Below, piece by piece: positions 6,943 to 32,624 of a DNA stretch of 64,000 bases. Origin of the DNA: a virus (Duplodnaviria > Caudoviricetes). Position 1 is the stretch's first letter, and each line of letters begins with the position of its first letter. The notes below the pieces were generated by a model. It was not told where the DNA came from. It ran no database searches and saw only the letters and a list, made by a program, of their open reading frames with translations. Made by a program: the position numbers and the translations under genes. Location of the stretch: the IMG/VR virus record IMGVR_UViG_3300007965_000002, positions 1-64,000 of that record, one strand, 5' to 3'.

Positions 6943-6950
6943 GAAAAGTA

Positions 6951-7010
6951 AAAAAGCACTTCCATTAGGGGTGCTTTTTACGTATAATAGCTTTATAGAA
7001 TTGAGAAAGG
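6951..7010 (+). promoter_or_regulatory. terminator-promoter-RBS cassette, copy 1
   Basis: AAAAAGCACTTCCATTAGGGGTGCTTTTTACGTATAATAGCTTTATAGAATTGAGAAAGG; TTCCAT-17-TATAAT lies inside a hairpin. Confidence 0.85.
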
Positions 7011-7019
7011 AAACAAATT

Positions 7020-8798: not shown

Positions 8799-8820
8799 TT
8801 AGTTCTAAGTAATAAAGTTA

Positions 8821-8880
8821 AAAAAGCACTTCCATTGGAGGTGCTTTTTGCGTATAATAGCTTTATAGAATTGAGAAAGG
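8821..8880 (+). promoter_or_regulatory. terminator-promoter-RBS cassette, copy 2
   Basis: AAAAAGCACTTCCATTGGAGGTGCTTTTTGCGTATAATAGCTTTATAGAATTGAGAAAGG. Confidence 0.85.
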
Positions 8881-8890
8881 GAACAAAGCA

Positions 8891-9322: not shown

Positions 9323-9624
9323 TACAGTACTTACAACAGATTATGGACTTAGCACTATTAAAAGATGAAGCTTTATCTATAAATGTAGGTATATGTTCAA
9401 ACCTATATTACCTATCTAATTTTAGATATGATGAAGATGATATTACTAAGTATTTCTACTCTTGGAAACATTTTTCAGGTGACTATAGGTACCCTGTGCC
9501 CTATCCGTCACTAGACCCTGATAAAGCATTTTTAACTATAGATAACCTATGGGTTGGTGAGTATGGTGAGTTACGTATTGATCTACTACAACACTTAATA
9601 GATTCGGTAGATAGATGGAGTTAA
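9313..9624 (+). CDS. hypothetical protein, paralog family W-x-GEYG-x-LR
   Basis: Same motifs as 8891. Confidence 0.75.
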   Translation: MRLVQYLQQIMDLALLKDEALSINVGICSNLYYLSNFRYDEDDITKYFYSWKHFSGDYRYPVPYPSLDPDKAFLTIDNLWVGEYGELRIDLLQHLIDSVDRWS

Positions 9625-9911
9625 GTCTATTATACCTACCGTTTAGCATTAGTACAGGCATTACTTTATCTGTATGTGCCTTAGTATTAATGCTTATAGA
9701 CCTATTAAATAATAAAATAACTAATGATGAAGAATTACGCATCGATTTAAGGTTTAAGTTTATAAGAGATGTGAATCTAAATTGTAGATTAAATAGCTTC
9801 TATAGCACTAGTAATAGTGTGAATAGAACAAAAGCGTATCACCAATCAATTTTACGAGAAATAATTATAAACAAGTTCAGTCTTGAATATTTAAAGGAAT
9901 TTAACAAATGA
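9615..9911 (+). CDS. membrane protein
   Basis: N-terminal hydrophobic helix. Confidence 0.6.
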   Translation: MELSLLYLPFSISTGITLSVCALVLMLIDLLNNKITNDEELRIDLRFKFIRDVNLNCRLNSFYSTSNSVNRTKAYHQSILREIIINKFSLEYLKEFNK

Positions 9912-10818: not shown

Positions 10819-10834
10819 AGAAGCATTAAAACTA

Positions 10835-10895
10835 AAAAAGCACTTCCTAAGGGGGGTGCTTTTTCTGTATAATAGCTTTATAGAATCAAGAAAGG
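10835..10895 (+). promoter_or_regulatory. terminator-promoter-RBS cassette, copy 3 (variant)
   Basis: AAAAAGCACTTCCTAAGGGGGGTGCTTTTTCTGTATAATAGCTTTATAGAATCAAGAAAGG. Confidence 0.8.
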
Positions 10896-10905
10896 AAATA
10901 AAGAA

Positions 10906-16131: not shown

Positions 16132-16143
16132 GCTGTAACGTTG

Positions 16144-16203
16144 AAAAAGCACTTCCATTGGAGGTGCTTTTTGCGTATAATAGCTTTATAGAATTGAGAA
16201 AGG
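16144..16203 (+). promoter_or_regulatory. terminator-promoter-RBS cassette, copy 4
   Basis: Identical to copy 2 at 8821. Confidence 0.85.
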
Positions 16204-16212
16204 GAACGAATA

Positions 16213-16707
16213 ATGGAAAAGCAAATAATAGAAGCAGCAAATAACCTTATGAGATACATACTAATAGCCTATGGTTTTGAACTAAAACATAGAGTTACTA
16301 TTAAATTTGACTTAAAAGGTCGTGCAGCAGGCGAAGCTATCTACTATGTGGAAGATGATGCTTTCGTTATTCGTTTTAACAAAGAAGCTGGCCTAGATTT
16401 TATAATATCAGATACTTTACCACACGAAATGGCTCATGTATTGGAAGCTGCTTTTGGAGGTAAAATGTCGCATGGTAAAGCTTGGAACTATTACTGTCTT
16501 GAGTTAGGTGGTACAGGTTTAACATACCACTCTCTAGACCTGACACCTGCTAGAAAAACTAGAATGTTCCTTTACGTAGTAAAGGGTGAACATTGTGAGT
16601 TAACCATTATTAGACATAATAGAATACAAAAGAAAGATATGTTCTACATATCCAACGATACTGGTAACGAAATTAGAAAACAACACTTTGTAAAGGAAAT
16701 TATATAA
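16213..16707 (+). CDS. SprT-like zinc metalloprotease domain protein
   Basis: LKGRAAG, TLPHEMAH, HG.AW, C..LGG..H. Confidence 0.8.
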   Translation: MEKQIIEAANNLMRYILIAYGFELKHRVTIKFDLKGRAAGEAIYYVEDDAFVIRFNKEAGLDFIISDTLPHEMAHVLEAAFGGKMSHGKAWNYYCLELGGTGLTYHSLDLTPARKTRMFLYVVKGEHCELTIIRHNRIQKKDMFYISNDTGNEIRKQHFVKEII

Positions 16708-22621: not shown

Positions 22622-22762
22622 ATGAACCGACGACAGTCGACTCGAGTGATTCGCCCCAACCTACCAAACACTCTCTATCTAATACAAAAGAAAAGAGCCA
22701 AGTCCAAGCTTGGACTTAAATACGCTTTATGGCTCTTTACGTCTAAAAATAGACTTACCTAA
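22622..22762 (+). CDS. candidate 46-aa basic peptide (or part of a structured ncRNA)
   Basis: AAGGAGGT 7 nt before ATG; MNRRQSTRVIRPNL...KNRLT. Confidence 0.35.
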   Translation: MNRRQSTRVIRPNLPNTLYLIQKKRAKSKLGLKYALWLFTSKNRLT

Positions 22763-22866
22763 AAAATTTACAGCAACATTGAAAGCTTCCGATTCCGCTA
22801 AGAATTAGAAGCCCTTTTCAAAAAACAGACTACCTTAAAAAACAGACTTGCCTAAAAACAGACTAC
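22745..22866 (+). repeat. short direct repeats AAAAA(C/T)AGACT(T)(A/G)CCT
   Basis: Copies at about 22745, 22820, 22837 and 22855. Confidence 0.7.
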
Positions 22867-22924
22867 TCTTATTTTGAACATCATTTCCTGAAAAAGCAAC
22901 TCCAAACTTCCGCTTCACCCACTT

Positions 22925-23075
22925 CTAGCAATTACTTATAGATCTTGCACTAATATAGGTTTTGCACTTATACACCACAATTCCCCCTTGTTCTACAATT
23001 CTAGCAATTCCCCCTTATTCTACAATTCTAGCGATTCCCTTTGTTACATAATTCTAGCTCAATTGCTTTTTAGGG
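22925..23075 (+). repeat. tandem repeats (CT)ACAATTCTAGC(A/G)ATTCCCC
   Basis: 3-4 imperfect copies. Confidence 0.7.
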
Positions 23076-23350
23076 ATTACTCTAATTAGCTTCGGGTACC
23101 GCTTTGTTGCTTTCCGGGATAAAAATGAGCCTGGTATGCAATTTTGAGATAGTCCAAATCTCCGATTAGCTCTATTTATCCCTGAAAAGCAACCCAACGA
23201 ACCTAGTCCGCCTCGAATATCTCCCAAAAAGTCCAAATAACTCCAAATATCCCTGAAATAGCACTTTCTAGCTAGTCCAGCGAGTCACAGTGGTGAAGCC
23301 ACTGAATCCCGCTAGTCCCGGTGCACGTAATGTGAAATTCTGCTTTACAG

Positions 23351-23480
23351 ATCGGTTTCGCACTGGCGCAGGGTAGATTTTTATTTTTTGACCAAAATTT
23401 ATTTAGACTACACGTTCGGATTCGCACTTAGTCGGTTTCGCACTAGTAACCCTCGGTTTTGCACTTATCGGTTTCGCACT
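23351..23480 (+). repeat. five copies of TCGG(T/A)TT(C/T)GCACT
   Basis: At 23351, 23415, 23431, 23452 and 23467; a related copy at 22955. Confidence 0.8.
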
Positions 23481-23520
23481 AAAGCGCCGAGCTGCGCTCA
23501 CCGCCACGTGCATTCACGCT

Positions 23521-23600
23521 GGACGTCTAGCCATCCAGACTTCTAGCCGTCTAGCCATCTGGACGTCCAGCCATCTGGCCATCTAGACGTCTAGACGTCC
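23521..23600. promoter_or_regulatory. array of 10 tandem in-phase met boxes (MetJ operator-like)
   Basis: GGACGTCT AGCCATCC AGACTTCT AGCCGTCT AGCCATCT GGACGTCC AGCCATCT GGCCATCT AGACGTCT AGACGTCC; consensus AGACGTCT. Confidence 0.85.
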
Positions 23601-23609
23601 GCAAAGTTG

Positions 23610-23656
23610 AATACGAATCATTCTCATTCCCACCTTGAATGCGAATCATTCTCATT
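23610..23656. promoter_or_regulatory. two Fur boxes
   Basis: AATACGAATCATTCTCATT (23610-23628) and AATGCGAATCATTCTCATT (23638-23656). Confidence 0.7.
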
Positions 23657-23672
23657 TCGATTACGATTAGCA

Positions 23673-23730
23673 GTTTACGTAAACGTCAATATGCGTTTTT
23701 TCTAATGTTTACCTTTACGTAAACGTCAAC
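23673..23730. promoter_or_regulatory. three LiuR-type boxes
   Basis: GTTTACGTAAACGTCAAT (23673), GTTTACCTTTACGTAAAC (23707), CTTTACGTAAACGTCAAC (23713) versus sTTkACGTwwACGTmAAs. Confidence 0.65.
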
Positions 23731-23772
23731 TAAGTTATACAAAGTTATCCACACTGTTATACATTATCCACA

Positions 23773-23788
23773 TGGCACGTTAATTGCA
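23773..23788 (+). promoter_or_regulatory. sigma54 -24/-12 box
   Basis: TGGCACG-TTAA-TTGCA. Confidence 0.75.
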
Positions 23789-23845
23789 TAATCCCTGTAA
23801 AGCAACCTAACGAGTTATCCACAACTTATTAACAGGGTTATACCA

Positions 23846-23861
23846 CTGTATGTTTATACAG
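23846..23861. promoter_or_regulatory. LexA (SOS) box
   Basis: CTGT-ATGTTTAT-ACAG within the palindrome TACCACTGTATGTTTATACAGTGGTA. Confidence 0.75.
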
Positions 23862-24043
23862 TGGTAGTAACATGTGGATAAGTGTAAACGTCCATTTTAA
23901 GGGGTCTAAATGGCTCTGTAAGTTGCTTTCAGGGATGGGCTATATATTAGGTGGTACTAGATTCTATAGCCTGGAGGGATTATATTAGATTTACCTGTTA
24001 TAGCGTGTAAACGGCGAACTACACGCGCAAGCGTGTAGTCCTA

Positions 24044-24097
24044 TGCAAGAATCATGCCAACTATTTTTCGACGCGGTGAATGAGAATAGTTCTCATT
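24044..24097 (-). promoter_or_regulatory. composite module: sigma54 box, GC motif, Fur box
   Basis: Reverse-complement TTGGCATGATTCTTGCA (24044-24060); GACGCGGTG; AATGAGAATAGTTCTCATT (24079-24097). Confidence 0.75.
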
Positions 24098-24107
24098 TGA
24101 CTTTATG

Positions 24108-24398
24108 CTAACACTGGAAATAAATTCTGTCTACTCCTTCTAGTATATTCATTTCTTCTAATATACCATAGCCTATTGGGGCTAATTTCTTAAAGTCCTG
24201 TACTGTAAATTGTGCTACTTCACAATAAGATTCGGCCTCTATATTGTCTAGCTCTATAGTAGATTCTAGAAGTAAATCATGCCATTTATCCCTAGGGTAC
24301 GCGCATAAAAACATACCCAAATTTATATCTAAGATAGTTAATTTTTCAACACTAGAATTTTTAATACTTCCTAGTCGTGCGTTATTAGAATAGCTCAT
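24108..24398 (-). CDS. pre-early hypothetical protein
   Basis: Operonic ORF with GGAG RBS. Confidence 0.65.
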   Translation of the reverse strand: MSYSNNARLGSIKNSSVEKLTILDINLGMFLCAYPRDKWHDLLLESTIELDNIEAESYCEVAQFTVQDFKKLAPIGYGILEEMNILEGVDRIYFQC

Positions 24399-24592
24399 TT
24401 TAAAAGCTCCTTAAGTTTAGGTAAATTAGCACGCCCTAATTTATTTCGGGCGTGATCTACGTTGGCACGTTGTCTAGTGATGCGCTTTTCAATATCAGAT
24501 TTTTCATCTAATATGCTGGCTAGCTTGCTGCAAGCAAATTCGTATTGTTGCAGCAAGTATAAATAGCGCTTTTCTTTATTTGATAGGCTCAT
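24395..24592 (-). CDS. pre-early coiled-coil protein
   Basis: Coupled ORF. Confidence 0.65.
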   Translation of the reverse strand: MSLSNKEKRYLYLLQQYEFACSKLASILDEKSDIEKRITRQRANVDHARNKLGRANLPKLKELLK

Positions 24593-25032
24593 TATCCAAA
24601 CTCCACTAATGCTAGCAATTCACATTCTGCGCCCATTTCATCCTCGTTATACTGTACAGCTTCTAGGTGGTTGAAAATATCCTCGTCAAATGTTTCCTGA
24701 TAGCATTCGGTATAATCGATTGAGCAGTTTGCAACCTGTTCGCGGTTAAATTCTGCTCTAGCTTTTTCGCTGTAACCTACTCGAGTTTTTGCCTTGGCTA
24801 GTGTTTGCTCGGTAAGCCAAGTACCAATTGAATTAGAGTAATCCATTGCAACGCTTTTAGTAGATACGAAAATCGGAGCAGGGGAAGCCATAGATCTAAC
24901 TAGTCCAGTGTTTAGTTGTACTGAATGGCCGATAACAATAGTTCTATTATTATCGTGAAACGATTTGGCTGAAAAGTCTATTTTATCACCACAAAGAGAT
25001 ACAGATTGGGTAGCGCGGTTTGAGTTTTTCAT
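24592..25032 (-). CDS. pre-early hypothetical protein
   Basis: Follows the 50-nt leader repeat and a promoter. Confidence 0.7.
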   Translation of the reverse strand: MKNSNRATQSVSLCGDKIDFSAKSFHDNNRTIVIGHSVQLNTGLVRSMASPAPIFVSTKSVAMDYSNSIGTWLTEQTLAKAKTRVGYSEKARAEFNREQVANCSIDYTECYQETFDEDIFNHLEAVQYNEDEMGAECELLALVEFG

Positions 25033-25079
25033 AATTTTGAATCCTAGCTTAGTGGGTTGAAATTATTTTCTTACCCGAC
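25030..25079 (-). repeat. 50-nt identical leader/RBS repeat (second copy 25913-25962)
   Basis: CATAATTTTGAATCCTAGCTTAGTGGGTTGAAATTATTTTCTTACCCGAC occurs twice. Confidence 0.9.
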
Positions 25080-25085
25080 CAAATA

Positions 25086-25113
25086 AGTATATCACACTGA
25101 CAACTGGTAGCAA
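25086..25113 (-). promoter_or_regulatory. pre-early promoter
   Basis: TTGCTA-16-TATACT with extended -10 TG. Confidence 0.6.
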
Positions 25114-25123
25114 GTAATCTTTT

Positions 25124-25179
25124 AGCCGTCTAGACGTCCAAACCCAAAATCGGCGCAGCGAATGAGAATCATTCTCATT
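25124..25179. promoter_or_regulatory. met-box pair plus perfect Fur box
   Basis: AGCCGTCT AGACGTCC (25124-25139); AATGAGAATCATTCTCATT (25161-25179). Confidence 0.75.
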
Positions 25180-25206
25180 TAGCTTTGCGTTAACAGTGAA
25201 CTTCTA

Positions 25207-25458
25207 TTATTCAAATTCCACTAATGCTAGTAGTTTGACAATTTCATTAACACTTTGTGAACAATTGTACTTATTAGCATCTGCTAATATACCCGCTAAA
25301 TCCTCCAAATCGTAAATTCGATAATGATAACAAAACTCATAATTTTTAACTTCTGGCTTTGTTACCGAAATGTTACAATAACAATCAATTTCGTTATCAC
25401 AGCCATGTAAGTATAGTTCAACCATTACACCCCCAGAAAAGCAACAAAGCGATAACAA
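25207..25458 (-). CDS. pre-early hypothetical protein
   Basis: ORF; the true start may be the internal MVELYLHG. Confidence 0.55.
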   Translation of the reverse strand: MLSLCCFSGGVMVELYLHGCDNEIDCYCNISVTKPEVKNYEFCYHYRIYDLEDLAGILADANKYNCSQSVNEIVKLLALVEFE

Positions 25459-25603
25459 TCACCACGCCGCAACAATTAAGTAACTCAACAGCCATACGTT
25501 CTGATAATCCTAGTTTTAACGCTACCATATCAATTAAACAATTCATTAAAATGCCCCCGCAAAAAGTGCTGCCATGATGAACGTAAACATAAGCTTTGAC
25601 CAA
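25418..25603 (-). CDS. small membrane/lipoprotein-like ORF
   Basis: Hydrophobic C-terminus; start uncertain. Confidence 0.4.
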   Translation of the reverse strand: MVKAYVYVHHGSTFCGGILMNCLIDMVALKLGLSERMAVELLNCCGVVIVIALLLFWGCNG

Positions 25604-25734
25604 CCAGCCTTAAAGTCGTTTGTACCTATTGAACGAGCTATACCGATTACGCCACACAAAGCCGCTAAAATAGTTAATATTAATACTAGCATGATTATCA
25701 CCTCTAGGCTAGCCCGTAGGCTAGCCTTATCCAA
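25546..25734 (-). CDS. small membrane protein
   Basis: Two TM helices; probable start MLVLIL after GAGGTG. Confidence 0.55.
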   Translation of the reverse strand: MDKASLRASLEVIIMLVLILTILAALCGVIGIARSIGTNDFKAGWSKLMFTFIMAALFAGAF

Positions 25735-25735
25735 G

Positions 25736-25915
25736 TTAAGTAGTTGATTTAGTGGTTAATGGCACCATTTGCATTTGTGAAAATATAGCTGCTAATTCGT
25801 CACGCTCAAGTGTAACAACTACCCCCGAGTCTGTTTGCAATTTAATCACCTGCTGACCTTTCAGTGTTCTGTGTTGAACCATGTAAACGACTTCTTGCTT
25901 GCCTGAAATAAACAT
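25736..25915 (-). CDS. pre-early hypothetical protein (59 aa, not in ORF track)
   Basis: MFISGKQEVVYMVQHRTLKG...; starts at the 50-nt leader repeat. Confidence 0.65.
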   Translation of the reverse strand: MFISGKQEVVYMVQHRTLKGQQVIKLQTDSGVVVTLERDELAAIFSQMQMVPLTTKSTT

Positions 25916-25968
25916 AATTTTGAATCCTAGCTTAGTGGGTTGAAATTATTTTCTTACCCGACAAAGAC

Positions 25969-25996
25969 AGTATAGCACACTGATAAATCATATCAA
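25969..25996 (-). promoter_or_regulatory. pre-early promoter
   Basis: TTGATA-16-TATACT with extended -10 TG. Confidence 0.6.
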
Positions 25997-26249
25997 CTAT
26001 TTATTTGGTCTAAAATGAAAAACATTGTTCTTACCAGGAACCAACCAGGGTTACCGGCAGGTAAACCTGCCCAGCCAGCCAGCCTAGGCAAATATACCTA
26101 TTTCTTGCAAAAGTCGCTTAAATCGCTGTTTTGGCGGCTTCCTGTCGGTGGATAATGTATAAGGGCTGTTTCAATGATTTTTTTATCCACAGGTTATTAA
26201 CAGGTTATACATTATCAACAGGGTTTATAGGCCACCAGCAACATTTTGA

Positions 26250-26266
26250 CAATGGTAAGACCAATT
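26250..26266. promoter_or_regulatory. PdhR-type operator
   Basis: CAATGGTAAGACCAATT versus AATTGGTAAGACCAATT (15/17). Confidence 0.6.
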
Positions 26267-26348
26267 GACCAAGTTATCCACAAAATTATTTTGTTTAATG
26301 TATAACTCACCTGTTAATAAGTCTAGACTTATCCACAAGTACCACACA

Positions 26349-26447
26349 TGCAAGAATCATGCCAAAAAATTTTCGGCGCGGCGAAATGAGAATGATTCTC
26401 ATTTGCATTCAACCCAGTGAGCTACCAGGATGAGAATGATTATCATT
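26349..26447 (-). promoter_or_regulatory. composite module copy 2: sigma54 box, GC motif, two Fur boxes
   Basis: TGCAAGAATCATGCCAA (26349-26365); GGCGCGGCG; AATGAGAATGATTCTCATT (26385-26403); GATGAGAATGATTATCATT (26429-26447). Confidence 0.75.
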
Positions 26448-26470
26448 TGCATATGCAAGTTTGCTAATAC

Positions 26471-26636
26471 AAGTTGGCATGGTTTTTGTTGCGAACTATT
26501 ATCATATGCGTTTTTGCTAATATACCTATATGCAAGTTTGCTAATATTAACATTAGATTCTACTAATATAAGTTGGCATGGTTTTTGTTGCGAACTATTA
26601 TCAACAAGAATCGTGCCAAGTCAAGAATCGTGCCAT
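26471..26636. repeat. 34-bp direct repeat and four sigma54-like boxes
   Basis: AAGTTGGCATGGTTTTTGTTGCGAACTATTATCA at 26471 and 26570; reverse TGGCACGATTCTTG at 26603 and 26620. Confidence 0.7.
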
Positions 26637-27178
26637 AACAGTAAAATCTAATATATAGCTCTAGAACGCGCTATAACGTGATTTGCCGGTACTATTATTT
26701 TTTGAAGCCCTAGTATCAAAACCTTTTTAAAATGCCACCAGCAGCCAAAGCGTGACTTATCCACAAAGTTATCCACAAGCAATGGGGTTGACATTCTCAA
26801 AAGGCCATTTCTATCCACAATTTGCTAGTTATACATAAAAAATCTGTGGATAAGTGAATAACTAGCATGTTTTACAAATGTCAAATTTATTTGAAATAAT
26901 GCTTAACAAAGTTATCCCCACCTGGTAGAGCCTGGACGTGCCCCTTGTGGATAACTATTACCAAATAGGCCGATTCCTTGGATTCTAGGAAAGTTATCCA
27001 CAAAATTACAAACCAGGAAAATTATCTGTGGATAAGTGCCCTGTGGATAAGTACCAAATAGCACCAGATTCAACAATCTATTTGTTTTGATATACGACTG
27101 ACCAAAAAATTAAAGTCGCTTAAATCGCTGTTTTGATGCCTTTACGGGCATATTAGTTATATCTAATATATAACCATG

Positions 27179-27195
27179 TTGGCATGGTTATTGCT
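27179..27195 (+). promoter_or_regulatory. sigma54 -24/-12 box
   Basis: TTGGCATGGTTATTGCT. Confidence 0.7.
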
Positions 27196-27395
27196 ACGCG
27201 CTCGCACCTGTTTCTTTTATAAACTAGCCCAGGCTTATGCATTCTAGTTATAACTTATATTAACTAGTTATTAGACGGTATTTTTTAAACGTGGTCTAAT
27301 AGCTTCATTGAAACGGGACATCATTTCAATGTTATTTTTACCCTGTGATGTGAAGCGGCTTTGATTAGCGCGAGGTACTAGGAAAAAATAAAAGC

Positions 27396-27470
27396 TTGAC
27401 AATAAAAACGGTTCCATGCAATAATAGCTCCACTGATTAGGCAGCATCCTAAACGTTCTTTAACAATCTG
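27396..27470 (+). promoter_or_regulatory. pre-early promoter with rrn-like boxB hairpin and boxA
   Basis: A-tract UP element, TTGACA-18-AATAAT, TTAGG-CAGCAT-CCTAA hairpin, CGTTCTTTAACA. Confidence 0.6.
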
Positions 27471-27591
27471 GTAACAAAAAAGTTTCACTTGCCTAGTTAA
27501 AGTTATCATTAATCACATTATTTATTAGTAGTGTGATTATTGACTAACTTTTAGTCAATACCACTAACTAAAATCATTGGAGATTTTAAAA

Positions 27592-27978
27592 ATGGCAAAG
27601 GCACCTAAAACCCAAGAAACGAAAAAAGCTACCGTATTGCGTAAAAATCACGGTACTAAGGGCAATTTTCCCCCTAAAAAATCTTGGGTAACATTAAACG
27701 GAAGGATTAAAACCGAAGTCGTTTTATGTTCTGGAAATTTCGAACCAATGCGAACGGGCGACAAAGACAAAGACGCCGAAGCAATGCGACTTTATCGCGA
27801 AGCATACCGCGCCGATTTGCGAACGCTTGAACGCCAAAAACCTGTTAAGCCTAAAACATTATTCGACCTTTATGTGTTGAACGGTGGCAAGGCAAGACAC
27901 CCGAAACAGCTAGCAGGCCAAATTGTGCAAATGCTCGGTTATTCGCATAATTCAAGCGCTGAAATTCGCATTATTTAG
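27592..27978 (+). CDS. basic pre-early protein
   Basis: GGAG RBS before ATG 27592. Confidence 0.7.
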   Translation: MAKAPKTQETKKATVLRKNHGTKGNFPPKKSWVTLNGRIKTEVVLCSGNFEPMRTGDKDKDAEAMRLYREAYRADLRTLERQKPVKPKTLFDLYVLNGGKARHPKQLAGQIVQMLGYSHNSSAEIRII

Positions 27979-27981
27979 GGG

Positions 27982-28188
27982 ATGCTAATGTTTATATTAT
28001 TTGTTGCTATATACATGTTAGCGGCTTATTTAATTGGTTTATTAACAGGCCAATTATTGGAGTCAAGAGATAAAACTTTCTTTACCTCAGAGCCTATCCA
28101 CGGCCACGTTTTATGTGTATTGTGTTTGTTCTGGCCTATCCTGCCCTTGCTTACGCAAGCCAGCAGGTTAAGGAAATTTAAACCGTAA
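27982..28188 (+). CDS. small membrane protein
   Basis: Two TM helices; position resembles the T5 pre-early membrane ORF. Confidence 0.6.
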   Translation: MLMFILFVAIYMLAAYLIGLLTGQLLESRDKTFFTSEPIHGHVLCVLCLFWPILPLLTQASRLRKFKP

Positions 28189-28277
28189 TATAGAGTTATC
28201 TTAAAGAGCGTTTATTAAGCGCTCTTTGTGGCTAACTTTAGCCATTAACTAACTAACCCTTTCTAGGAGATTTACAA

Positions 28278-28745
28278 ATGACTACAACTAAAACACCAGC
28301 TAAAAAATTCGCTTGGAATGATGAAACCTGTTCACAAGCTGCCGCGCTTTATGCTGAATTACTAGGTGCAACTTACAACCCTGTTACTAAAACGCTGGAT
28401 TTTGAAGTTGGTTCGAAGCCTACTGTCGATTTACACACGGTAGCAAACAGCGAAAAAGCTTTAAATGCAATCGCTGTTAAAATTGGGGCGAAATCTGGTC
28501 GTGCTGTTCGCGGTAAGTTATCAAAAGAGGGCGTTTATATTACCCTTGAAGCCGTCCCAACTCCAAGCACCTCGACACGTATCTCAAAAGGTCAGTACGT
28601 GCGTTCAATTGCCGAGGGTTTAGGCGTTGACCTTGAAACAATCCAAACGCTTGATAAGGCCAATTTAGAAGCGTTGGAAACCTTAACAGCGAAATTAAAC
28701 GGAGTGTTGAAAGCTGCCGAAATGCCAGAAATCACTGTTAAGTAA
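28278..28745 (+). CDS. A2: T5 A2-like DNA-binding / second-step-transfer protein
   Basis: FAWNDE..., IA..IGAKS..AVRGKLS, K.QYVR.IA resemble T5 A2; synteny with A1 and dmp. Confidence 0.8.
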   Translation: MTTTKTPAKKFAWNDETCSQAAALYAELLGATYNPVTKTLDFEVGSKPTVDLHTVANSEKALNAIAVKIGAKSGRAVRGKLSKEGVYITLEAVPTPSTSTRISKGQYVRSIAEGLGVDLETIQTLDKANLEALETLTAKLNGVLKAAEMPEITVK

Positions 28746-28782
28746 TTGTTAACTGGGCGTTAATTCTAGCGCCCTTTAATTT

Positions 28783-28798
28783 CCCGTAATGACGGAGT
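28783..28798 (+). promoter_or_regulatory. repeated hairpin-RBS leader CCCGTAATGACGGAGT (also at 29263 and 31335)
   Basis: Three identical 16-mers, each 6-8 nt before an ATG. Confidence 0.75.
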
Positions 28799-28806
28799 AT
28801 TAAAAA

Positions 28807-29244
28807 ATGTTTTCACCCAAACTCAACTTATCTGATTTAGTCGCAGAGCATAAAGGCCATATTGCAGCCGTATTAGATACCCAGTCCGAAATTGAGCGCT
28901 TAAAGGAACTAGCATTTCAGCAAAAAGAAGCGGCTAAACTTGACCGTGATACGTTAACGCAATTAATACGCCAATTGTCTAACGAGCGTCACCCAAGCAA
29001 CAACGGCATGTTGCAAGAAGCAAATGTTAGCGCTTTGCTTGGCGCAATCAATATTAACTTTACTGCTTATAACAGCTCAAATGATGAAGTTAGACTAGCG
29101 TATGATAAGGCCGTTAACGTCTACAATGACGCAATGGTAAAGCTATTTAAAGCAAAAATAGCATATATCGAAAGTTGTGCTGTTTATGGTAGTATGGCAG
29201 GCTTATCGGTTAACTGGCAAGCGCTAGAAAAACGTAGCAAGTAA
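28807..29244 (+). CDS. pre-early helical hypothetical protein
   Basis: ORF after the leader repeat. Confidence 0.7.
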   Translation: MFSPKLNLSDLVAEHKGHIAAVLDTQSEIERLKELAFQQKEAAKLDRDTLTQLIRQLSNERHPSNNGMLQEANVSALLGAININFTAYNSSNDEVRLAYDKAVNVYNDAMVKLFKAKIAYIESCAVYGSMAGLSVNWQALEKRSK

Positions 29245-29284
29245 GCAACCCCTTTAAATTTTCCCGTAATGACGGAGTAACAAA

Positions 29285-30958
29285 ATGAAACAAGTTAAAA
29301 ACCTATCTGTAGCGACACAAGCGGCATTGTTAAATCTTGCTCAAAATGAGTTTAATTATTATGGCAAGCGTACCCGTTCAACTCGCCTAACTTGTGCTGA
29401 ACAAATGCTTAGAGAATGTGAGTTAATCGGAACGGTAGAAAGTGCCGATTTAGTGGAATGGCTGGCAGAAAATAAACCAGCACCAGCACCAGCCAAAGAA
29501 AAAGCCGAAAAAGTTAACGCTCCGTTAGTTCCTACTTTCAACGGCGAGTTAATGCATCGTGACGATATTATGCAAAGCTTACCTGATGGCGTTTATATTA
29601 TTTCTAGTGCGCAAAATAATACATTGCCGCACCCTACACTAAAATCATTAAAAACTTTAGCGGGTGTTTTAGAGGCTCAACTTTTATTGATGCCTATTAA
29701 ATACACAACAACGCTTGATAGCTTGGAACGCAAAACGCCAACTTATGACGATAGTGTTACACCTTATCTAGTAGAGAATAATATCTGGCTAGGTGGTCGT
29801 GGCTGTGTTCGCTTGGCAGTTGGGGCAAATATCCTGCCAACCGCTAAGCAGCCAATTAACACGGCAGCAAACTTGAATAAAGGCGAGTCGTTAACCGTTG
29901 TTGCCTCACCTAAAAAGCAACTCAAAACACTAGCCCGTTCAAAAGATGGTGCACATCGTTGGGTATATACAACGGGTTCATGTACACAACGCCATTACAC
30001 TGACACCAGAGCAGGCGAGGAGGGATGTGATTCACATACGTTCGGGGCATTAGTTGTCACTGTTAATGAGGGTTATGTCGAGCATCAAGAAATTGTGGCA
30101 GATGAAAGCGGGGCATTTTATTATGATATGGCCTGTTATGATGGTTTTAACATAACAGAGATTCACAAGACACCAGCACTAGTTTTAGGTGACTTACATT
30201 GTGAAAAGATGTGCGAAAACTCGCTTGTAAGAGCATTAGCCCAAATTGATATTTATCAGCCCTCACAAGTTATTTTACACGATACACTAGATTTTATGTC
30301 TAGAAATCATCACAATCGAAATAGCGGTTTGTTTCTATATACAATGGGTTCCCGCTCTGTTTTAGATGATTTAAATGATGCTGTTCATGTTGTAAATAGA
30401 ATTGCTGCCCAATGCGATAGCGTTTTTATCGTTTGCAGTAATCACGACTTAGCCCTTGATAGCTGGCTTGATGACCCAAAATACAACGCTGATAAAGACC
30501 CTATCAACGCTAAAACGTATTATTTCTTGAAACATGCTGTTTTAGAAGCAATTGACAGCGGGGACGAACTAGACGCACCACGCTTAGCAATGTTTGATTT
30601 AGCAATCACTAAACTAGTCGAGCAGTTAGCGGAACCATTAGCCAGTAATGTTATATTTGGCCGTCTAGATATGAGCCATAAGATTAACGGATTCGAATGT
30701 GGTTCTCATGGGCATTTAGGTAACAGCGGCGCACGTGGTTCGCAACGCTCGTTTAAAGCTTATCAGATGCCTTGGATTAGCGGCCATACACATTCACCCG
30801 CCCGTGATGGTAATGTGTTAACCGTGGGCGTTACTGGTTCGCTGGAAATGGGCTACAATAAAGGTGGTACTATGTGGGATAGAGCAAACGCCTTAATCCT
30901 GCCAAATGATACAGCCGTATTAATTCCCACGTATGCAATAGGAGAGCAGCAAGCATAA
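29285..30958 (+). CDS. A1: T5 A1-like DNase / DNA-transfer protein
   Basis: 557 aa; IISSAQNNT, TTGSCT..HY, LGDLH, SNHD, HGH.G..GARG, GHTHSP, GVTGSL..GYNKG; synteny. Confidence 0.88.
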   Translation: MKQVKNLSVATQAALLNLAQNEFNYYGKRTRSTRLTCAEQMLRECELIGTVESADLVEWLAENKPAPAPAKEKAEKVNAPLVPTFNGELMHRDDIMQSLPDGVYIISSAQNNTLPHPTLKSLKTLAGVLEAQLLLMPIKYTTTLDSLERKTPTYDDSVTPYLVENNIWLGGRGCVRLAVGANILPTAKQPINTAANLNKGESLTVVASPKKQLKTLARSKDGAHRWVYTTGSCTQRHYTDTRAGEEGCDSHTFGALVVTVNEGYVEHQEIVADESGAFYYDMACYDGFNITEIHKTPALVLGDLHCEKMCENSLVRALAQIDIYQPSQVILHDTLDFMSRNHHNRNSGLFLYTMGSRSVLDDLNDAVHVVNRIAAQCDSVFIVCSNHDLALDSWLDDPKYNADKDPINAKTYYFLKHAVLEAIDSGDELDAPRLAMFDLAITKLVEQLAEPLASNVIFGRLDMSHKINGFECGSHGHLGNSGARGSQRSFKAYQMPWISGHTHSPARDGNVLTVGVTGSLEMGYNKGGTMWDRANALILPNDTAVLIPTYAIGEQQA

Positions 30959-31008
30959 TGTTAGATAGAGATTATAACGGCTACCCCATTAAGTAACTTA
31001 ACCCGCTT

Positions 31009-31024
31009 TGTTCCACGTGGAACA
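31009..31024. promoter_or_regulatory. parS site 1
   Basis: TGTTCCACGTGGAACA within the 24-bp perfect palindrome 31005-31028. Confidence 0.8.
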
Positions 31025-31055
31025 AAGCAACCCCCCTTTTTACGGAGTTACCCAA

Positions 31056-31292
31056 ATGTCACAAGTTAATATCACGTTTACCAAAGACACCCCAGAATCA
31101 TTCGAACCTGAAACAGGGCAATTTTTTCAGGTTAATGAATGCCATACAAACGAATTGATTTTAATAACTGACGACACCCATGTGTGCGTTATTTTATCTA
31201 GTGGTCAATTAATGGACGTTGAAAACCTAGACGAAAAGCTTACCCGCGATAACTTAGTTATTGATTTAAAAATCGAAGCAACCATTAAATAA
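31056..31292 (+). CDS. pre-early hypothetical protein (78 aa)
   Basis: GGAG RBS before ATG 31056; the track start 31008 is unlikely. Confidence 0.65.
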   Translation: MSQVNITFTKDTPESFEPETGQFFQVNECHTNELILITDDTHVCVILSSGQLMDVENLDEKLTRDNLVIDLKIEATIK

Positions 31293-31303
31293 TTAACCCG
31301 CTT

Positions 31304-31319
31304 TGTTCCACGTGGAACA
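31304..31319. promoter_or_regulatory. parS site 2
   Basis: Identical palindrome at 31300-31323. Confidence 0.8.
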
Positions 31320-31358
31320 AAGCAACCCTTTTTCCCCGTAATGACGGAGTATTAAAAA

Positions 31359-31982
31359 ATGAGCCAATTTAAGCCAAAGCATATTACAATTTTTGACCTA
31401 GACAGAACCGTTATAGATAGCGACCATCGCACCCCCTACGATAATGATGGCAACCTAGATTTAGCAGCATATCGCGACAACCAAACACACGCTAACATTA
31501 TGAATGACACACTTTTACCCTTAGCTAAACTTATGCAATCGCGCATAGCCCAAGGGGAAACCGTGGTAATCGTTACTGCAAGGCGCATGATTAAGAGTGA
31601 TTACATATACCTAAGAAAGAACGGATTAAAAACCGCGTATACTTGCAGTCGTGACCAATTATTCAAGCGCTTCGATAATGAAACCGCATCAATGATTTAT
31701 AATCTTAATGATGCAAACTACAAATGGCATTGGTTTAACCATTTACAGAACCGTTTTCCTCTTGCCTCGTTTACTGTATACGATGACCATAAAGGCGTAT
31801 TAAAGGTGGCGCAATCGTTTGGCTTTCAAGTGTACGATGCAATTAGTGTTAATAGTATGCTGGCTGATTTTCTTGATATGGGATTTGAAGAAGGATTTGC
31901 GCAAGGATTAGACGCGGGTTATCTGGACGGGGAAATGAGCGCTATTCATCAGGTAATTGAATTTGACAGCAGAGCAGCCTAA
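31359..31982 (+). CDS. dmp: deoxynucleoside-5'-monophosphatase (HAD)
   Basis: IFDLDRT, VTAR, YDDH HAD motifs; last pre-early gene, as in T5. Confidence 0.8.
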   Translation: MSQFKPKHITIFDLDRTVIDSDHRTPYDNDGNLDLAAYRDNQTHANIMNDTLLPLAKLMQSRIAQGETVVIVTARRMIKSDYIYLRKNGLKTAYTCSRDQLFKRFDNETASMIYNLNDANYKWHWFNHLQNRFPLASFTVYDDHKGVLKVAQSFGFQVYDAISVNSMLADFLDMGFEEGFAQGLDAGYLDGEMSAIHQVIEFDSRAA

Positions 31983-32103
31983 GCGCAATGCTGGTAGTAT
32001 ATGCATCAATGCTAATATAGTGCAATATGTTAGCATTGCATTATCCCCCTGTTAGAGCATTAGCCCTTACTAATATATAGTAAGGGCATTTTTATTATGT
32101 ACA

Positions 32104-32208
32104 AATGATAATCAATATCAAATGAGAATCATTCGCATATGATAAGCCAGGAACAAATGATAATCATTCGCATTTAGGGTGGGGGCGGTAATGAGACTCA
32201 TTCTCATT
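32104..32208. promoter_or_regulatory. four Fur boxes
   Basis: At 32104, 32121, 32156 and 32190 (e.g. AATGATAATCATTCGCATT, AATGAGACTCATTCTCATT). Confidence 0.7.
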
Positions 32209-32305
32209 TGACCCAGGCCCCACCCCTTTTCATGTAACTACTATGAAAAATTAGAGGAAATGGCTTAGGCCGCCTCTAAGAGCAACTAAGCGGTTCCCTG
32301 AAAGC

Positions 32306-32455
32306 AACTATGCATAATTCCCCAACTATGCATAATTCCCATAACTATACATAATTCCCATAACTATGCATAATTCCCCTAACTCCCTATACTCCCTTTA
32401 CTTCCCAACTTCCTATACTCCCTTTACTTCCTATACTCCCCGCACCCCTCCACTC
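32306..32455 (+). repeat. short tandem repeats near the inferred genome end
   Basis: AACTAT(G/A)CATAATTCCC x4, then CCTATACTCCCTTTACTT-like repeats. Confidence 0.8.
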
Positions 32456-32624
32456 CCAAAGAGACTACTAATCTAAAAGACTCCAAATACAATTCTTAAT
32501 TTTTTAATTTAAAAATACTTGGCTAGTACCTTACTTGCATCCGAGGTAGAAAATTAATCTTTACATATATTAATAATAACGTTATAATAACCCTATTATT
32601 AACACACATCTAAGAGGAAAGTAT

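Follow-up and report, generated by a model that had tools for sequence, protein, structure and literature searches.

Candidate binding sites for host proteins cluster in non-coding blocks of a putative T5-type terminal repeat

Pre-early genes and mapped sites

The window analyzed here is a stretch of 64,000 nucleotides taken from a viral contig of 89,861 bp, which was classed as linear, was estimated to be 77% complete and carries a single collapsed copy of a putative terminal repeat. Homologues of A2, A1 and dmp form one operon (Table 1), and a small-gene operon flanked by non-coding blocks runs divergently from it, as in T5-type repeat regions. There are no tRNAs in the window, and an Rfam scan of 22-33 kb gave a sole match, which was below threshold and spurious.

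The original prediction took this region for the counterpart of the T5 DNA transferred in the first step, and synteny supports that assignment. The boundaries given for the region (22750 and 32460) and its designation as a "terminal repeat" should be read as deductions from the sequence: alignment to the measured Thalassa repeat probably places the repeat between approximately 23.0-23.3 kb and approximately 32.2 kb, and the terms "terminal repeat" and "enters first" are applied here only by synteny with T5, Thalassa and Stubb.

Table 1. Genes, promoters and candidate binding sites in the pre-early region
Feature	Position	Strand	Remarks
DRD-type direct repeats	22937..23479	+	five clear copies at 23351-23479, two weaker at 22945-22972
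MetJ-type array	23521..23600	+	ten in-register 8-bp met boxes, each matching 5-8/8 positions of AGACGTCT
Two Fur boxes	23610-23628, 23638-23656
Two LiuR-type boxes	23674-23689, 23712-23727		conserved in L008
Core module	23745..23881		DnaA boxes at 23745, 23764, 23815 (+) and 23873 (-)
Sigma54 promoter of core module (predicted)	23773-23788	+	perfect consensus
LexA box	23846-23861		gammaproteobacterial type, AT-rich centre; within a longer palindrome; unique in contig
Sigma54 promoter (predicted) and Fur box	24044..24097		promoter 24044-24059 (-), Fur box 24079-24097
Met box pair and perfect Fur box	25124-25139, 25161-25179		intergenic gap of minus-strand operon
DnaA boxes of block 2	26147..27050		10 perfect, 5 with one mismatch; block lies between divergent pre-early operons
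Chi, exact octamers	26232, 26735	-	both on this strand
PdhR-like site, weak	26251-26265		one mismatch to GntR-type palindrome
Sigma54 promoter (predicted)	26349-26364	-
Fur boxes of block 2	26385-26403, 26429-26447
Sigma54 promoter (predicted)	27180..27195	+	about 200 bp upstream of main sigma70 promoter
Strong sigma70 promoter of A2-A1-dmp operon	27396-27425	+
rrn-type boxA	27454-27466	+	A2-A1-dmp leader; 11/13 match
A2 homologue (DNA-binding protein)	28278..28745	+	phrog_1725; PF26822 recorded for orthologues in relatives
A1 homologue (DNA transfer protein)	29285..30958	+	by homology
Two identical 16-bp parS-type palindromes	31009-31024, 31304-31319		flank a small ORF; A1-dmp spacers
dmp homologue (5'-deoxyribonucleotidase)	31359..31982	+	PF26880 recorded for relatives
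Terminator of A2-A1-dmp operon	32063-32087		3' of dmp
Four Fur boxes after dmp terminator	32101, 32121, 32156, 32190		region 32063..32208
Direct repeats, 19 bp (4 copies) and 26 bp (2.3 copies)	32306..32440	+

The DRD-type repeats of the inner block correspond to "direct repeat D" of T5, whose nine copies lie on both sides of the inner boundary of the terminal repeat; the motif is also present in nine copies in Boggle, six in Thalassa and five each in JSF10 and L008, a relative of the window phage. The adjacent MetJ-type array was detected by Tandem Repeats Finder as an 8-bp repeat at 23524-23599 (9.5 copies). No methionine gene lies downstream of it, and it is predicted to be a binding array and not the operator of a gene; such arrays occupy the equivalent position in Thalassa and JSF10. 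In Proteobacteria, genes for leucine/isovalerate catabolism and for MerR regulators have the 16-mer of the LiuR-type boxes upstream: nine of the 12 flanking genes tested belong to the LiuR regulon or are plausible for it (two carboxyltransferases, an acyl-CoA dehydrogenase, an enoyl-CoA hydratase, a fused isobutyryl-CoA mutase, two MerR regulators and an etfBA/FAD-oxidoreductase pair), the remaining three being two metallo-beta-lactamase-fold proteins and a sodium/solute symporter. This context confirms the identity proposed for the LiuR boxes, of which three had been claimed and two were mapped. The DnaA/sigma54/LexA core module has a counterpart in T5, Thalassa, JSF10, D332, Boggle and Stubb; its LexA box is identical at 18/18 positions in L008 and is present in all nine lineages examined. 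The sigma54 and Fur sites at about 24044-24097 form a 57-nt module, which recurs at 26348-26405.

Eight sigma54 sites had been proposed. Four of them are perfect; two of these point towards operons, the other two towards non-coding DNA or the end of a convergent operon. Sites at 26475, 26574 and 26603 can be read either as sigma54-like or as sigma70 promoters, and the one-mismatch sites 26475 and 26574 fit sigma70 equally well. The 27180 site is shared with L008 at 22/22 nt, and Thalassa has the same 16-nt core. No binding site for a sigma54 activator was recognised near these sites, and no activator gene was identified. A boxA is found upstream of A2 at a comparable position in Thalassa, JSF10, D332 and L008. 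The two Chi sites of the T5 repeat have an orientation equivalent to that of the two minus-strand Chi of the window, and Thalassa has one Chi in this orientation at the matching place in block 2 and one further match outside its repeat.

The parS-type palindromes match the palindromic consensus at 14 of 16 positions; in relatives the consensus is matched exactly, between genes and within flanking sequences that are unrelated. We considered whether these are mere terminator hairpins and rejected this, the relatives having a separate preceding terminator and the 16-mer being kept while its flanks vary. Searches of the contig (77% complete) for a ParB_N match and for phage versions of ParB, MetJ, Fur and LexA found none, and no cognate parAB was seen in it; a host ParB would have to be the binder of parS. 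Fur boxes after dmp are also present in L007, L012 and L013. By alignment to Thalassa, the physical end of the repeat would lie approximately 17 bp past the last of the four Fur boxes at the tip, and all four fall within approximately 125 bp of this putative leading end. The direct repeats that follow are probably just outside the terminal repeat.

Enrichment and conservation of the sites

Three blocks (22750-24100, 26000-27500 and 32000-32500, 3.35 kb in total) were scanned and compared with the other 86.5 kb of the contig. The perfect DnaA box TTATCCACA occurs 14 times in the blocks and once in the rest of the contig, and the sigma54 consensus TGGCAY-N5-TTGCW is matched perfectly four times in the blocks and nowhere else. 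With up to four mismatches allowed, the 19-bp Fur consensus is found five times in the blocks (six in the whole region) versus two elsewhere; ten Fur sites in all have 0-4 mismatches to either the local palindrome or the E. coli consensus. The double met box (up to three mismatches) gave 4-5 matches versus none, the LexA motif CTGT-N8-ACAG one versus none and Chi two versus one, and the two parS-like palindromes in the A1-dmp spacers are the only ones in the contig.

As a control, 500 dinucleotide-preserving shuffles of the three blocks were scanned. Mean counts were 0.05 for DnaA (14 observed), 0.04 for Fur (5), 0.004 for MetJ (4), 0.016 for sigma54 (4) and 0.06 for Chi (2), and none of the 500 shuffles reached the observed number for any of these five motifs. 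The single LexA box (mean 0.012) was equalled in six of 500 shuffles. The single boxA (mean 0.19) was reached in 85 of 500 and is not significant by count, and the one PdhR site, with one mismatch, is not conserved in L008. An unbiased count of repeated 10-mers placed DnaA-box words first and Fur-box words second, which argues that the motifs were not cherry-picked. The dense island of sites for many regulators that had been proposed is thus borne out, both against the rest of the contig and against the shuffles. Its list of sites holds for DnaA (14), Fur (about 10), MetJ (10+2 boxes), LexA (1), parS (2) and Chi (2); PdhR and boxA are weak by count, and of the sigma54 sites the four perfect ones stand while 26475 and 26574 are ambiguous.

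Searches for relatives gave no match to the region by megablast against a phage collection and no close relative when viral contigs were searched with A1; relatives were obtained by protein search. Shewanella phage KASIA was examined and proved not to be a relative of this kind. T5-like relatives show a similar pattern: in five complete genomes (T5, Thalassa, JSF10, Boggle and Stubb) matches to LexA, Fur, MetJ, sigma54 and DnaA motifs lie almost only in the terminal repeats, and the order of DRD repeats, Fur or MetJ array and DnaA/LexA core is kept in all five. In T5 this order is mirrored relative to the window, as expected from the T5 orientation. Sites come within 15 bp of a measured repeat end in Stubb and within 17 bp and 67 bp in Thalassa. 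When the region was compared with that of a relative whose A1 is 76% identical, the candidate sites stood out as conserved islands, indicating that they are under purifying selection. In this close relative the position of the MetJ array is taken by Fur boxes, and this exchange argues that the identity of the regulon does not matter and that the role is a generic, physical one.

Possible roles of the sites

The cause of the stop of T5 DNA after 8% is a question about 60 years old. According to Davison (2020; 10.1101/866236), transfer without protein synthesis stops in vivo but is completed into FhuA proteoliposomes, so a component of the cell is needed; the same paper notes that the leading end needs protection at a stage when no phage protein is present. 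The enrichment and conservation described above make it very probable that the window contains genuine sites for host proteins, selected for binding. Our preferred reading, which we hold at slightly less than an even chance, is that these near-consensus sites act in cis: they would load pre-existing host proteins onto the phage DNA that carries them, both at the pause point and at the leading end. Before phage expression, host proteins would be the only DNA-binding proteins at hand, and we infer that they would load within seconds of entry; the sites would serve the abundant DnaA, Fur, MetJ, LexA, sigma54 holoenzyme, LiuR and ParB, with Chi belonging to the same set. A large complex would form just inside the pause point, on the DRD repeats, a cooperative Fur or MetJ array and the DnaA/sigma54/LexA core, and a small Fur cap at the leading end.

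More tentatively, the inner complex may belong to a brake that arrests the DNA, or keeps it in place, until A1 and A2 have been synthesised. Such a brake, consisting of several unrelated binding proteins, would be robust to the physiological state of the host. Against it, it is not obvious how DNA still being driven inward would be arrested by proteins bound on the cytoplasmic side; the virion itself could cause the stop, via the nick at 7.9% or via proteins on the DRD repeats; block 2 sits 3 kb from the pause point; and the sigma54 sites at 26349 (-) and 27180 (+) face operons and may be true promoters. No effect on T5 growth is known to us for host mutants in fur, metJ or similar genes, which fits redundancy and equally fits the lack of an essential role. 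A role of the sites as a packaging stop was rejected, because the motor must pass the first copy of the repeat without cutting.

An extension of the brake to the whole T5 family is somewhat unlikely. In that version, two-step injection would be gated by a host-built brake of redundant proteins, held until A1/A2 release it. Its module would comprise DnaA, LexA and an interchangeable cooperative filament of Fur or MetJ; marine members would add sigma54 holoenzyme, LiuR and ParB, and host ParB clamps, loaded at parS and fenced by roadblocks, would coat the first-entered DNA in that lineage.

The positions of some sites suggest a regulatory function, which is unlikely to be the explanation of the set. 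Here the sigma54 sites would be alternative promoters of the two pre-early operons, and the Fur, LexA, MetJ, LiuR and DnaA sites would be operators that adjust pre-early transcription to the supply of iron and SAM, to DNA damage and to the state of growth. The sites at 26349 (-) and 27180 (+), the latter conserved as described above, are indeed each located 0.2-0.4 kb upstream of the sigma70 promoter of the operon they face, Fur boxes precede two sigma54 sites by approximately 35-55 bp in the repeated module, and the leader boxA is a true transcription element. However, the candidate sites are outside transcription units, most of them beyond the end of the minus-strand operon or past the dmp terminator, where no gene is available for regulation; none overlaps the -35/-10 elements of the two strong sigma70 promoters. 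Ten met boxes and 14 DnaA boxes are far above the needs of an operator, and the sigma54 sites come with no identified activator site or gene.

A role in end protection, recombination and DNA handling is quite unlikely as an account of the whole. Fur at the tip and the inner cluster would shield the ends, Chi would convert RecBCD that comes in at the DRD-side end into a loader of RecA, leading to recombination of the two repeats, and host ParB at parS would coat or position the first-entered DNA. The closeness of the tip Fur boxes to the leading end, the early need to shield that end, the orientation of both Chi sites, active for RecBCD entering from the DRD side, with its parallels in T5 and Thalassa, and the exact parS 16-mer of relatives in combination with a contig lacking ParB are all consistent with this. 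On the other hand, RecBCD displaces bound proteins, there are just two Chi and two parS sites, and T5 and the other enteric members examined lack both parS and the Fur boxes of the tip, which therefore cannot explain the family-wide core.

The original prediction also offered the island as a "chromosome mimic / operator sponge" reprogramming host metabolism, in which the amplified repeat would titrate Fur, MetJ, LexA, DnaA and others and derepress host regulons. This was not supported and is improbable, even though the number and quality of the sites exceed those of natural operators, and titration is known in E. coli both for Fur boxes in multicopy and for the datA locus. During the pre-early phase each cell has a single copy, the sites cluster at the borders of the repeat and not anywhere in the genome, and the targeted regulon differs between close relatives at the same position, MetJ being exchanged for Fur. 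Furthermore, the phage has A1 and dmp, genes that in T5 accompany a quick breakdown of the DNA of the host and its shut-off; derepressed regulons would thus have no target by the time of high copy number. Finally, recognition of the repeats by phage proteins, with a chance likeness to host sites, is very improbable: although A2 is a DNA-binding protein conserved alongside the repeats, and no host protein has been assigned to the DRD repeats or to several further conserved elements, the region holds seven independent motif classes at or near textbook consensus, none of the 500 shuffles reached the DnaA, Fur, MetJ, sigma54 or Chi counts, the LiuR 16-mer lies upstream of its regulon in bacteria and relatives carry the exact parS consensus.

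The comparison among relatives also suggests a general principle: DNA that acts before phage proteins are made can use host proteins only, and the occupant of a given position can vary from one relative to another. Reading the repeats as operators of named, purifiable host proteins makes the problem approachable by simple experiments with E. coli and T5. The set of sites also predicts the host, a gammaproteobacterium with MetJ, LiuR, sigma54 and chromosomal ParB/parS, which would be Vibrionales- or Alteromonadales-like and not enteric.

Comparison with known systems

Repeat Regions 1-3 of T5, with the injection stop signal, were reportedly described by Heusterspreute in 1987, Wang in 2005 and Davison in 2015. 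The three blocks of the window correspond to them, injection stop signal included: in both phages one non-coding block separates the divergent operons and another follows the small-gene operon, towards the inner end of the repeat (a putative one in the window phage), both blocks have DnaA boxes, DRD repeats adjoin the block at that end, and A1, A2 and dmp are alongside. The T5 repeat has three perfect DnaA boxes versus 14 in the window phage, and lacks its MetJ, sigma54, LiuR and parS sites. The T5 "palindrome D" matches the LexA box and "direct repeat C" matches Fur boxes, and the calculated shear point of T5 (9618) falls within a Fur-box array (9473-9630). The published account of T5 names DnaA boxes only, whereas the elements of the window can be read as Fur, MetJ, LexA, sigma54, LiuR and ParB sites. 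Recent papers describe the T5 stop signal only as repeats, palindromes and DnaA boxes; Davison (2020; 10.1101/866236), who called the T5 palindromes impossible to interpret, makes no mention of Fur, MetJ, LexA or sigma. This agrees with the claim that the multi-regulator set had not been described, an older mention elsewhere being possible.

The Vibrio T5-like phages (Ermolyevavirinae: Thalassa, JSF10 and D332) share the gene order, the MetJ array followed by sigma54/DnaA/LexA sites in the stop block, the identical 16-nt sigma54 core upstream of A2, the leader boxA, the Chi of block 2 and Fur-like boxes after dmp; we found no paper describing these sites in Vibrio phages. Their A1 is only 37-49% identical to that of the window phage, which has many more DnaA and Fur boxes and, in addition, the LiuR boxes.

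Like datA and multicopy Fur boxes of E. coli, the window contains clusters of high-affinity sites that serve no gene and could bind a host protein in many copies. Titration by datA or Fur boxes acts in a living cell, whereas the window sites border the first-entering DNA of a phage expected to destroy host DNA. In T7 early-entry DNA and the leading regions of conjugative plasmids, too, the DNA that enters first has cis elements using pre-existing host machinery. T7 pulls its DNA in via promoters for host RNA polymerase and plasmids use single-strand promoters; the elements of the window, unlike these, are repressor, initiator and centromere sites.

Enrichment and identity of the predicted host-protein sites

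The analysis of the three non-coding blocks of the pre-early region (22.75-24.1, 26.0-27.5 and 32.0-32.5 kb; 3,353 bp), in comparison with the remaining 86.5 kb of the contig, revealed a marked concentration of predicted sites for host proteins. Perfect DnaA boxes number 14 in the blocks and one elsewhere; perfect sigma54 -24/-12 promoter matches and double met boxes (four and four to five, respectively) are found only in the blocks, and Fur-consensus matches are five to six against two. The genome's single copy of CTGT-N8-ACAG falls within the region, as do both parS-like palindromes and two of the contig's three Chi sites. Of 500 dinucleotide-preserving shuffles, made from the block sequences, none reached the counts for DnaA, Fur, MetJ, sigma54 and Chi, and six reached that for LexA. 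The site clusters reported in the original prediction are thus real by both comparisons. A motif-free count of repeated 10-mers ranked DnaA-box words first and Fur-box words second, and the 8-bp array was also reported by Tandem Repeats Finder. Two of the predicted classes fared less well. PdhR is weak, being represented by a single one-mismatch site that is not conserved. The boxA match is not significant by count, as 85 of the 500 shuffles reach it; it recurs in relatives. Two near-sigma54 sites fit sigma70 promoters as well and are also weak items.

The assignment of a 16-mer to LiuR was upheld. This sequence is widespread in Proteobacteria, where it frequently forms a perfect palindrome of 22 bp, and lies directly upstream of genes for methylcrotonyl-CoA-type carboxyltransferases, acyl-CoA dehydrogenase, enoyl-CoA hydratase, fused isobutyryl-CoA mutase, MerR-family regulators and etfBA. 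Relatives of the phage have the exact parS consensus in several intergenic positions whose flanks are unrelated, and some of these relatives have a separate terminator hairpin before it; therefore, the parS 16-mer itself is what is kept. No homologue of ParB, MetJ, Fur or LexA is encoded on the contig (89,861 bp, estimated to be 77% complete). Since MetJ, LiuR, sigma54, chromosomal-type parS and Fur sites are combined with a gammaproteobacterial LexA box, the region predicts a host of the Vibrionales or Alteromonadales type and not an enteric one. parS is absent from T5, Boggle and Stubb, all of which have enteric hosts.

Presumed repeat borders and position relative to transcription units

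The window covers the first 64 kb of an IMG/VR virus contig that is classed as linear; no long internal or terminal repeat was found in the 89,861 bp of this contig. Within the phage collection, its A1 is matched best by Vibrio T5-like phages (49% identity; T5, about 34%), the gene order is that of Vibrio phages Thalassa and JSF10, and the genes for the small and large terminase subunits lie directly downstream of the 22.7-32.5 kb region. The phage is a new T5-family member of marine type, and metagenomic relatives with A1 70-76% identical were recovered.

Positions of the main features, with homologues named after the T5 pre-early genes
Feature	Position	Strand	Remark
A2 homologue	28278-28745	+	
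A1 homologue	29285-30958	+	
dmp homologue	31359-31982	+	
Small-gene operon	24108-25915	-	divergent from A2-A1-dmp
Strong sigma70 promoter	27396	+	
Strong sigma70 promoter	25996	-	
DRD repeats ('direct repeat D' of T5)	23351-23479		five copies
Met-box pair and perfect Fur box	25124-25179		intergenic gap
TCCCTGAAAGCAAC-like motif	22886, 23179, 23250, 23792, 32296		
TCCCTGAAAGCAAC-like motif	23062, 23107, 23923	-	
72-90 nt repeats	6945-7017, 8813-8887, 10828-10902, 16136-16215		

Comparison of the two copies of the Thalassa repeat gave a length of 7,395 bp, with the start 67 bp before the first internal DRD copy and the end 17 bp past a Fur-like box that follows dmp. For Stubb, PhageTerm places the boundary at 15 bp from a Fur box, and the calculated shear point of T5 first-step DNA, 9618, is inside a predicted Fur-box array. 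Judged by alignment, the repeat of the present phage probably starts at about 23.0-23.3 kb and ends at about 32.2 kb; its last 125 bp would then hold four Fur boxes. Close to each of these presumed borders, and to the same borders in the relatives L007, L008 and L012, a 13-15 nt motif (consensus about TCCCTGAAAGCAAC) is repeated; no host protein could be matched to it, and it may act as a signal for packaging or for the border. Three more DRD-like repeats with a 27-bp period are present far from the pre-early region, at 65106-65175 of the same contig (beyond the window), and the 72-90 nt repeats, 83-97% identical, are scattered upstream of the region.

Neither of the strong sigma70 promoters is overlapped by any of the host-protein site matches. 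At 32.1-32.2 kb, the Fur boxes are located past the dmp terminator, and the whole 22.75-24.1 kb block is beyond the end of the minus-strand operon. Two sigma54 promoter matches, at 26349 (-) and 27180 (+), are oriented towards the operons and could be functional. boxA belongs to the leader that precedes A2 in the A2-A1-dmp transcript, and it recurs at a comparable position upstream of A2 in L008 and in Vibrio phages Thalassa, JSF10 and D332, which suggests rrn-type antitermination. A 72-nt direct repeat (25030-25100 and 25913-25983, 94% identical), probably a promoter or leader that was duplicated, precedes two places in the minus-strand operon. At 26455-26545 and 32000-32045, 3-4 copies are present of a word with TTTGCTAATAT at its end; it resembles extended -10 promoters and lies just upstream of sigma54-like or sigma70 -35-like TTGGCA sites.

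Conservation of sites and of their order

Non-coding DNA has diverged between the window and the metagenomic relative L008, the A1 of which is 76% identical, and it is the sites that can still be aligned. Identity is 18/18 positions in the LexA box and 22/22 in the sigma54 promoter at 27180; the LiuR boxes with one DnaA box show 89% identity over 88 nt, and Fur boxes, DRD repeats and boxA are also among the aligning segments. L008 has no met-box array at the corresponding place and carries six Fur boxes between its DRD repeats and LiuR boxes. Therefore, the predicted host protein at this position differs between the two, with the architecture unchanged. Both Fur and MetJ are repressors with cooperative binding along tandem sites, and this may explain their interchangeability here.

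Several shorter elements were also observed. Next to the DRD repeats, on their outer side, a 35-nt segment with a small hairpin (23279-23313) shows 97% identity to L008 within diverged surroundings. A 24-nt element containing a short direct repeat is found twice in the 26.0-27.5 kb block (26117-26133 and 27119-27142), the second copy being 100% identical to L008 7616-7639. Right after the last DRD copy, a GCGC-containing stretch (23480-23506), conserved in L008 (4053-4075), is located where T5 has its major 7.9% single-strand nick; a T5-type nicking endonuclease is encoded beside the terminase in relatives.

Whole genomes of T5, Thalassa, JSF10, Boggle and Stubb were scanned with the same patterns, and with reversed patterns as a control. 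The same site classes were found: essentially all LexA, Fur, MetJ, sigma54 and perfect DnaA matches are inside the terminal repeats, and the unique DNA, which exceeds 100 kb in every one of these phages, is nearly empty of them. The reversed patterns gave 0-2 matches. In Thalassa and JSF10 the DRD repeats are followed by a met-box array and then by sigma54, DnaA and LexA sites, and Boggle and Stubb carry Fur, DnaA and LexA matches. DRD repeats, repressor array and DnaA/LexA core follow one another in a conserved order; in T5 this order is mirrored, in agreement with the orientation of its map.

Possible role and comparison with T5

Transfer of T5 DNA stops in vivo without protein synthesis, whereas it is completed into FhuA proteoliposomes (Davison, 10.1101/866236), so a component of the cell is required. 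A host-protein site, unlike a site for a phage protein, would be usable before expression of any phage gene. For these two reasons we favour a cis-acting platform of host proteins on the entering DNA. Pre-existing host proteins would load on this DNA. A large complex would form immediately inside the pause point, and the leading end would receive a small cap. The complexes would help to stop or hold the DNA until A1 and A2 act, and the use of several unrelated proteins would provide robustness.

Alternatively, the pause could be intrinsic to the virion rather than caused by a cytoplasmic complex. True regulation, or sensing of the host state, is a further rival, and so are recognition of the repeats by phage proteins and end protection with recombination, by means of Chi in conserved orientation and a coat of host ParB. 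The operator sponge that headed the original prediction is rated low, as the copy number is one when titration would matter, destruction of host DNA is implied by A1 and dmp, and the targeted regulon changes between relatives.

The T5 repeat regions and their DnaA boxes are already known, and in two papers from 2026 the description of the stop signal still consists of repeats, palindromes and DnaA boxes. The Davison text (10.1101/866236) makes no mention of Fur, MetJ, LexA or sigma factors. As the original prediction had supposed of such a collection, no reading in terms of LexA, Fur, MetJ, sigma54, LiuR and ParB was found in the literature searched, to which the 1987, 2005 and Davison 2015 papers did not belong. 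The window contributes the widest set of sites seen to date and confirms LiuR; it also adds parS sites, the replacement of MetJ by Fur between relatives and the restriction of sites to the terminal repeats of five reference phages.

The left terminal repeat of T5 has three untranslated repeat regions (Davison, 10.1101/866236). Like T5 regions 1 and 2, the 26.0-27.5 kb block lies between divergent operons, and like region 3, which holds the stop signal, the 22.75-24.1 kb block lies beyond the small-gene operon. 'Direct repeat D' of T5, for which A2 is the first candidate binder, is recognisable in the window, Thalassa, JSF10, Boggle and L008. In T5 itself, a near-perfect LexA box corresponds to 'palindrome D' (9330) and is present a second time in inverted repeat D (6136), and the palindromes of 'direct repeat C' (9473-9630) are predicted Fur boxes.
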